From: a virus
Taxonomy: Duplodnaviria > Heunggongvirae > Uroviricota > Caudoviricetes
Virus record (IMG/VR): IMGVR_UViG_2695420624_000003
Coordinates: 1 to 27,032 of that record
Direction: 5' to 3' (one strand)
Length of the DNA: 27,032 bases
The position numbers and the translations under genes were made by a program. The notes beneath the pieces were generated by a model that made no database searches, was not told the origin of the DNA, and was given only the letters and a program-made list of their open reading frames with translations. Numbering within the stretch: the stretch's first letter is position 1; every line of letters starts with the position of its first letter. Shown here in pieces: positions 1,647 through 2,945 of this stretch.

Positions 1647-2945
1647 TCACCATGAAGGATAATTAGGTTTTTTTCCTCTTAAAAGAGATACTTTGTCAAT
1701 TATCTCAACAGAAGCAGTTCTATAATCCTCCTGCTGAAGTAGGTGAACTGCATAATCTCTCAATTCTTGCAAAGTGGAAAAGCCGTTACTTTCGATGAGT
1801 ATTATAATTATCTTAATATACTTAAAGATTTGTTCAGAGGATTCGTTCGCGTTGACGTTAAGTTCGTAAAAATCTTTACCATCATGAACAAGCTTGTTTC
1901 TTACGTCAGTATATAACTCGTCATAAACTTCTAGGTTTTTCTTAAATTTGATTAGTGAGTTATTACATGTAAGTGCTGCAATGTAGGTCCTTTGCTTCCA
2001 TCCTTTCCATTTTGGGTCAATATTAGCAAGACCATCAAGTGCAAAGACTAGGTTTAGAAATTGTGATTCTGCGCCAATTGAATAAAAAGATTGCCTACAT
2101 GCCCTAACTACGGAGCTAACTAATTTTGAAAGTTCATTTTCAACGACTCCATCGTAGATAGAAGATAAATATTGCAACCCAGGGTAATACAAGCTGTCAA
2201 CCTGAGGGCCTAGCCAATTATTACTCACGGCAAGGGGTCTTGATATTCCACTTATCTTAATTGGTTTAAGATGAGTCCTCTCACGAGGAATGATTTCTAC
2301 ATCATAAAATCCGTCAGAGCGTTGACCTGCAGGATTAGGGGTATATTCCATACGTGTAAATGAGCTGTGAGAAAATCTGACTAAATCAAGCGCATATTCA
2401 GCTATAGATAAACACATGTTTATAACATGGCTGTTATGATCAATGCTTGAATTAAGTTTTAATAAATCACTATATGGTAGGTCACAGTTAAACTGTATAT
2501 ACGAACCATCTTGCTCTGATAATCGCTTATGTGACTCTTCATCAAATTGTCTTCCGCAATAAAAAATATACTTTCCGATCTCGATGGTTTCCTGAATGAA
2601 AATCTTCTCAATCGGCACAATAACTATGCACTCCATATTTTTGTTTTTACCCTCTAATTCAGCTAATTCTAGGTTAGAGCTTCTTGATTTAGCTAACTCT
2701 ATTTCTACCCACTCAAAGCATATTGAGAAGTCTTCTAGAATTTCGATACTGCTTTTTTGATAACTATCCTTGGTATATTTAAATGTAATGCCATCTCCTT
2801 CAGGATAGGCACTGGCCCAATATCCCATATCTCTTAACTTTTTTAGAGATGTTGAGATATCGTCGACTTTATTAATAAAATCCTCTTTTCGCCATAAAAC
2901 ATTGCCAGTGTAGTTTTCGTACGGTGGTATTAAACGAGCTTTCAT
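1647..2945 (-). CDS. Hypothetical protein, low-GC cargo gene, with a C-terminal R-x4-H motif
   Basis: 432-aa ORF, visibly AT-rich; AAGGAAG ribosome-binding site upstream of the ATG; motif VRNKLVHDG near the C-terminus. No recognised family. Confidence 0.55.
   Translation of the reverse strand: MKARLIPPYENYTGNVLWRKEDFINKVDDISTSLKKLRDMGYWASAYPEGDGITFKYTKDSYQKSSIEILEDFSICFEWVEIELAKSRSSNLELAELEGKNKNMECIVIVPIEKIFIQETIEIGKYIFYCGRQFDEESHKRLSEQDGSYIQFNCDLPYSDLLKLNSSIDHNSHVINMCLSIAEYALDLVRFSHSSFTRMEYTPNPAGQRSDGFYDVEIIPRERTHLKPIKISGISRPLAVSNNWLGPQVDSLYYPGLQYLSSIYDGVVENELSKLVSSVVRACRQSFYSIGAESQFLNLVFALDGLANIDPKWKGWKQRTYIAALTCNNSLIKFKKNLEVYDELYTDVRNKLVHDGKDFYELNVNANESSEQIFKYIKIIIILIESNGFSTLQELRDYAVHLLQQEDYRTASVEIIDKVSLLRGKKPNYPSW

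Follow-up and report, generated by a model that had tools for sequence, protein, structure and literature searches.

The DNA analysed in this study (the window, 27,032 nucleotides in all) is a defective e14-like prophage of E. coli. Its genes run in the order terminase, portal (a fragment of 162 aa), invertible tail-fibre segment and pinE invertase. At the prophage end, as the first gene downstream of pinE and on the same strand, lies an intact ORF that encodes 432 aa from its ATG codon (Table 1). Because homologues retain both the N-terminus MKARL and a length of approximately 430 aa, we consider the start codon and the full length of this ORF to be correct. A reading of the sequence alone had placed the gene among the most AT-rich in the window, and this is borne out by a GC content of 35.5% (30.5% at third codon positions) versus 47.5% for the window as a whole. 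Only 5% of 1299-nt segments are equally AT-rich, and a single region of lower GC content is present at approximately 12.2-13.5 kb.

The portal fragment (5939-6427, minus strand) is followed directly by tail-fibre genes (5189-5935, minus strand). The head genes and most of the tail genes have been deleted, much as in cryptic e14 with its ymfN/ymfR/beeE layout, and the cargo genes are intact.

Table 1. Features of the 432-aa gene and its immediate flanks, in window positions.
Feature	Position	Strand	Remarks
CDS of the 432-aa protein, stop codon included	1647..2945	-	ATG start; full-length ~430-aa homologues share the N-terminus
Ribosome-binding site AAGGAAG	2950-2956	-	4 nt upstream of ATG; direct sequence reading
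Terminator-like hairpin 1546-1571 plus U5	1541..1571	-	~75 nt past the stop codon
Weak sigma-70 promoter-like site TTGAGT-18-TATATT	3005..3034	-	9/12 consensus matches
N-terminal domain, residues 1-93	2667..2945	-	Secondary structure of model, invariant residues, hhalign
Middle alpha/beta region, residues ~94-256	2178..2666	-	Invariant TPNPAGQ (202-208) and SNNWLGP (241-247)
C-terminal all-helical HEPN-like domain, residues ~257-432	1650..2177	-	
Predicted catalytic motif R349-N350-K-L-V-H354 (HEPN Rx4H)	1884..1901	-	Invariant in 32/32 aligned sequences

Expression signals and the pinE-side cargo slot

The signals that surround the gene agree with those described in the sequence-only reading, which had noted a ribosome-binding site, a dedicated terminator hairpin and a convergent neighbour. 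The ribosome-binding site is present, and the hairpin, which is followed by five U residues, has a folding energy of -16.7 kcal/mol (z = -4.1 versus shuffled sequences), although a scan for consensus terminators did not pick it up. The block common to other E. coli genomes begins at position 1544, and the hairpin is therefore included in this block. With an A-tract on its opposite side, the same hairpin could also terminate the convergent gene, a 373-aa ORF on the plus strand (415..1536). Upstream, the promoter-like site sits in the 332-bp gap after pinE and is a weak match to the consensus, and the count of such sites is not above shuffled expectation. It is equally possible that the gene is transcribed by read-through from pinE. 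No RNA family in Rfam was found at positions 1-4000 of the window.

The position of the gene downstream of pinE is one that other E. coli strains use for different cargo. In the e14 element of K-12, the same slot is occupied in the same orientation by mcrA, and other E. coli have a GIY-YIG, DUF4145, AAA-ATPase, GTP-pyrophosphokinase or lipase gene there. All E. coli carriers of the 432-aa gene share the segment between 1544 and pinE, with pinE always next to the gene. The outward neighbour varies and may be the 373/260-aa ORF, an FRG-domain protein, a 224-aa ORF or two 159-aa ORFs, which are unrelated to one another where compared pairwise. This variability indicates that the gene travels alone and that the convergent ORF is not its partner. 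A two-gene system comprising both is thus rejected, since unrelated genes take the place of the 373-aa ORF in other carriers. For the same reason, this outward position constitutes a second cargo slot that varies independently of the first. The neighbour had been called PIN-like, but Pfam gives no PIN match for the 373-aa ORF. No other credible match to this ORF was obtained with Pfam, PADLOC, NCBIfam or PHROGs. It begins with TTG and is called as 260 aa in other annotations.

Two further AT-rich cargo modules in the window match candidate defence systems in PADLOC. One is a module on the plus strand (12000-13614) whose 340-aa and 194-aa proteins match the candidate PDC-M53 (A, 2.1e-32; B, 2.8e-54). 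The other is a 303-aa trypsin-like protease on the minus strand (9397-10308) that matches the single-gene candidate PDC-S45 (5.8e-42). No other part of the window is as AT-rich as the PDC-M53 module (GC 29-36%), which sits beyond the lysis-gene region and whose proteins have long hydrophobic stretches. The protease gene has the HNH/terminase region on one side and the lysis genes on the other, and its product also matches Pfam Trypsin_2 (3.7e-8).

Architecture of the 432-aa protein

The sequence VRNKLVHDG, residues 348-356 of the protein, had been suggested from the sequence to fit the R-x4-H signature of HEPN RNases, with R349 encoded at 1899-1901 and H354 at 1884-1886. Motifs of the form RxxxxH are not rare, with 0.3 expected by chance, and a second one at residue 396 is unconserved. 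The significance of VRNKLVHDG derives from its invariance across the family and not from its mere occurrence. In an alignment of 32 homologues with 44-86% identity, residues R349, N350, L352, V353, H354, G356, D358 and F359 are invariant. The pattern R-N-x-[LI]-V-H is present in 115 of 115 close full-length homologues, and R-[NT]-x3-H is found in 46 of 49 distant relatives of at least 300 aa, where the three exceptions lack the entire C-terminal HEPN region.

Structure prediction places this motif in an appropriate fold. An AlphaFold2 monomer model (pLDDT 91.6, pTM 0.86) predicts that residues 257-422 are all-helical, with a core that forms an all-alpha four-helix up-down bundle, and that residues 1 to approximately 250 are mixed alpha/beta with about 13 strands. 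The motif is predicted to fall where the C-terminal end of the long helix 331-353 passes into loop 354-365. By definition, HEPN motifs are located at the end of a helix and the beginning of a loop, with N after R (PMC3710099), and the polar N350 that directly follows R349 is typical in this respect. The best structural matches of the helical domain are HEPN proteins, HepT among them, and Foldseek returned no significant match. Sub-threshold matches to Pfam HEPN_RiboL-PSP occur in 4 of 32 members (best E 0.0045, 16.4 bits versus a cut-off of 28.4), and the match covers the motif region in both members that were inspected in detail. Thus, the proposed R-x4-H signature lies inside a helical HEPN-like fold in the model, and we are highly confident that the C-terminal part of the protein is a HEPN domain. 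Two distant relatives, P0283 (664 aa) and P0274 (701 aa), have two R-[NT]-x3-H-x-G motifs per chain. This points to HEPN domains in tandem, which could build an active site within a single molecule in the manner of Cas13.

The first ~93 residues of the model adopt a beta-beta-alpha-beta-beta-alpha-beta topology and include the invariant motifs GNxLW and GYWASxFPEGDG. The middle region that follows has no recognisable relative. In contrast to this middle region, the N-terminal domain (A1) aligns by hhalign with a family of standalone proteins (A3; probability 99.5%, E 2.8e-22) that are 80-160 aa in length and share the invariant core GYxASxFPEGDG. Eleven A3 loci (L027 and L031-L040) were found. 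Ten come from viral contigs in IMG/VR, the longest of 98 kb, and one from a metagenome contig in ENA that is phage-like. Their neighbours are early, replication and recombination genes, including DnaB, YqaJ, ERF, DNA methylases and HNH. The standalone proteins belong to no Pfam or PHROGs family. A link between A3 genes and RNA repair was considered and rejected, given that an RNA ligase (RLIG1) neighbour is found in just 1 of 11 loci. Fusions of the N-terminal domain to different C-terminal modules also exist.

The standalone proteins could serve as decoys or form an anti-defence family; they could also have given rise to the sensor domain. We regard it as speculative, and on balance doubtful, that phages and bacterial immune systems pass this domain of ~90 residues between them as a module. 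If it were a decoy or inhibitor, an early phage protein of ~100 aa might poison the oligomer of the HEPN nuclease or sequester its trigger. Alternatively, the bacterial protein might have acquired the domain from a phage so as to detect the same target. The homology between the N-terminal domain and phage early proteins offers a handle on how such nucleases sense infection and on whether phages counter them with domain mimics, and the standalone phage homologues could mark a counter-defence relationship.

Distribution of the family

The gene had been thought an orphan, but a search of 5.8 billion proteins yielded 170 homologues at E<=1e-3. Nearly all are 425-440 aa in length and align over their full length, and they occur across Proteobacteria and in one cyanobacterium. 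Hosts include E. coli, Salmonella, Klebsiella, Serratia, Pantoea, Pseudomonas, Vibrio, Shewanella, Marinobacter, Methylomonas and Acidovorax. In their sources, all homologues are named 'hypothetical protein', and at least five carry the UniRef label 'Apea-like HEPN domain-containing protein'. The exact protein sequence occurs in 162 blocks of the assembly collection, and those that were read are all NCBI genome assemblies. The family is small, as searching all 1.84 billion representatives with a profile recovered only 195 clusters. These clusters include distant members of ~425 aa and also partial relatives of two kinds, which correspond either to residues ~147-430 only or to the first ~85-130 residues only. 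A literature search by accession found no paper that mentions the family accessions searched.

Several observations agree with the earlier suggestion that the gene was acquired horizontally. At 90% identity, the cluster takes in seven or more genera of Enterobacterales, with members in E. coli, E. albertii, Salmonella, Klebsiella, Serratia, Morganella, Citrobacter and Trabulsiella, and hence implies recent transfer within this order. The gene is rare in E. coli, with 7 carriers among 5426 complete genomes. Moreover, in every host checked its GC content is 3-25 points below that of its flanks; for example, one Serratia copy has 34.6% GC and flanks of 59.2%. In one of the seven E. coli carriers, strain JB2 (L003, NZ_CP182203.1, 4873-6898), the gene lacks the part for ~134 C-terminal residues and abuts an IS5-family ISKpn26, an arrangement that would fit selection against a potentially toxic gene.

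Beyond E. coli, the contexts are diverse. Homologues in Vibrio parahaemolyticus are found among the gene cassettes of superintegron arrays. One Pseudomonas homologue resides in an integrase island together with AbiJ_NTD4, a DEAD helicase, MazG, an SLFN-type helicase and HNH, and in one further genome the homologue adjoins a phage integrase. Elsewhere in Serratia and Pseudomonas, the homologue is a solitary insert between housekeeping genes, and at the Serratia and P. oryziphila loci the surroundings are of an ordinary housekeeping kind, without further defence genes. At two of the four Vibrio superintegron loci (L016, 8300-8746; L019, 4456-4902), a 148-aa ORF with no Pfam match begins right after the stop codon of the homologue; at the other two, the next gene is different and is separated by a gap.

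No homologue was detected in 50,697 sequenced phage records, and the gene is therefore not typical cargo of active temperate phages. A single plasmid homologue was found, and it is a distant one. A role in phage structure or the phage life cycle was rejected because there is no PHROGs match, none of these phage records has the gene, and it also occurs outside prophages; no homology to a structural phage protein was seen. With Pfam, PADLOC, NCBIfam and PHROGs, nothing rose above noise for the protein or its relatives (32 or 70, depending on the search), and PADLOC-DB v2.0.0 contains no credible HMM match for the protein or 31 homologues. Searches of PDB sequences by phmmer and by profile gave no meaningful match to the 432-aa protein.

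Proposed function and comparison with known systems

Since no PADLOC, Pfam, NCBIfam or PHROGs model matches the protein, the argument for a role in defence is one from context. This context comprises the slot that mcrA occupies in e14, the integron cassettes, the defence island in Pseudomonas and the PADLOC candidates that reside in the same prophage, and it points to abortive infection. We consider it probable, with moderate confidence, that the stand-alone HEPN gene, cargo (a 'moron') of a defective prophage, works by itself as a system of abortive infection or superinfection exclusion. The product would be a three-part cytoplasmic protein in which an alpha/beta sensor or regulatory part of ~250 residues precedes the putative HEPN RNase (R349/N350/H354). 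Such a protein might be made constitutively and kept inactive until its N-terminal half senses a cue of infection. HEPN domains would then dimerise to create a composite active site for metal-independent cleavage of cellular RNA. If ApeA, DARNA and PrrC are a guide, tRNA anticodon loops would be the likely target, and the resulting halt in translation or growth arrest would block replication of the incoming phage. The proposed RNase activity, dimerisation, trigger, substrate and anti-phage phenotype are inferred from established HEPN biology and from ApeA and DARNA.

If this proposal is confirmed, a compact single-gene HEPN defence family has gone undetected by PADLOC, Pfam, NCBIfam and PHROGs in hosts that include E. 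coli, Salmonella, Klebsiella, Serratia, Vibrio and Pseudomonas. Likewise, the pinE-proximal end of e14-like prophages would be a two-slot hotspot for defence cargo that can be mined for genes. HEPN proteins are to be expected in prophage cargo slots, and we view the result as moderately interesting and not as a surprise.

The systems closest to this proposal are ApeA and DARNA, both of which are single-protein HEPN tRNA anticodon nucleases that function in anti-phage defence (bioRxiv 10.64898/2026.01.26.701840; 10.64898/2026.02.22.705581). ApeA (Gao et al. 2020; Juozapaitis et al. 2026) forms a doughnut-shaped oligomer, cleaves tRNA anticodon loops and is activated by deoxydinucleotides. Its ~580 aa are arranged as a helical N-terminal domain, a Mid domain and a split HEPN_ApeA. 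The 432-aa protein could therefore be viewed as a diverged but true ApeA member that would assemble into the same type of oligomer and cut anticodon loops upon binding a small molecule, for example a 5'-phosphorylated deoxydinucleotide, in a pocket between the N-terminal and HEPN domains. The UniRef name given to some homologues agrees with such membership, as does the fact that both are single genes, without a conserved partner and found in E. coli accessory DNA, whose C-terminal RxxxxH HEPN domain follows a large non-catalytic N-terminal region. ApeA-NTD1, described as ~300 aa, mainly beta, containing conserved aromatics and fused to HEPN (Anantharaman et al.), is also loosely like the N-terminal half.

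Nevertheless, sequence models and size both argue against membership, which we judge unlikely and do not adopt. Neither PADLOC ApeA nor Pfam HEPN_Apea/ApeA_NTD1 matched any of 32 members at E<=1, the five proteins with the UniRef name have no such Pfam match at E<=10, and Pfam gave nothing credible at E<=0.01 in 70 distant relatives. Current HMMs thus do not reproduce the UniRef label. A profile search of PDB sequences likewise returned no ApeA chain, in a copy of that database that may not contain ApeA entries. In addition, the protein is considerably shorter than ApeA, and its N-terminal half is alpha/beta whereas ApeA is predominantly alpha-helical with a split HEPN domain. DARNA, at 456 aa, is likewise a single-protein HEPN tRNA anticodon nuclease of E. 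coli anti-phage defence. However, its HEPN domain is N-terminal, followed by a C-terminal helical sensor of ssDNA. This reversed order of domains led us to reject DARNA, whose accessory domains are also unrelated.

Another explanation is that the gene is selfish, in that an autoregulated HEPN toxin stabilises its carrier element (prophage remnant, integron array or island) as an addiction module, by killing cells in which the element is lost or silenced, and senses no phage. HEPN domains are common as the toxins of toxin-antitoxin pairs, and the structural match to HepT, the presence of the gene in superintegron arrays, where stabilising toxin-antitoxin cassettes abound, and its persistence in cryptic, defective prophages would all be compatible with such a role. 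Yet no MNT or other conserved antitoxin gene adjoins it in any context examined, and the highly conserved N-terminal half of 250 aa suggests sensing or regulation. The E. coli cell whose copy was cut by an IS also survived. The minimal HEPN proteins AF0298/UPF0332 (2hsb) and HepT of HepT-MNT (7ae2, 5yep) are single-domain proteins of ~130 aa that are paired with an MNT antitoxin, and toxins of the HepT type in general measure ~130-150 aa. The 432-aa protein is three times larger, with 250 extra N-terminal residues, and has no nucleotidyltransferase neighbour at any locus examined. Hence, we reject membership in HepT-MNT and find an addiction module rather improbable. The idea that the protein binds or processes RNA on behalf of the mobile element or host, for example in transcript regulation, without being a suicide effector, is very improbable, because a housekeeping role would predict vertical inheritance whereas the gene is patchy, horizontally transferred, rare in E. 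coli, low in GC in every host and located in known slots for defence cargo.

AbiA (8oz7), AbiJ/Taranis and Esos are HEPN abortive-infection proteins of plasmids and integron cassettes. Unlike AbiA, the 432-aa protein has no reverse-transcriptase/polymerase domain, and Pfam Abi_C and AbiJ_NTD have no match in the family. Esos is a cassette system of Vibrio. McrA of K-12 e14 resembles the 432-aa protein in genomic slot and orientation only, and is an unrelated HNH type IV restriction enzyme that acts on modified DNA. On these grounds we class the product of the gene as a HEPN effector with an uncharacterised sensor architecture, absent from the models of PADLOC (DB v2.0.0), Pfam, NCBIfam and PHROGs and set apart from ApeA, HepT-MNT and DARNA. 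As a functional analogy, ApeA is probably the best available, in that sensing by the N-terminal region would lead to tRNA cleavage and thereby to abortive infection.
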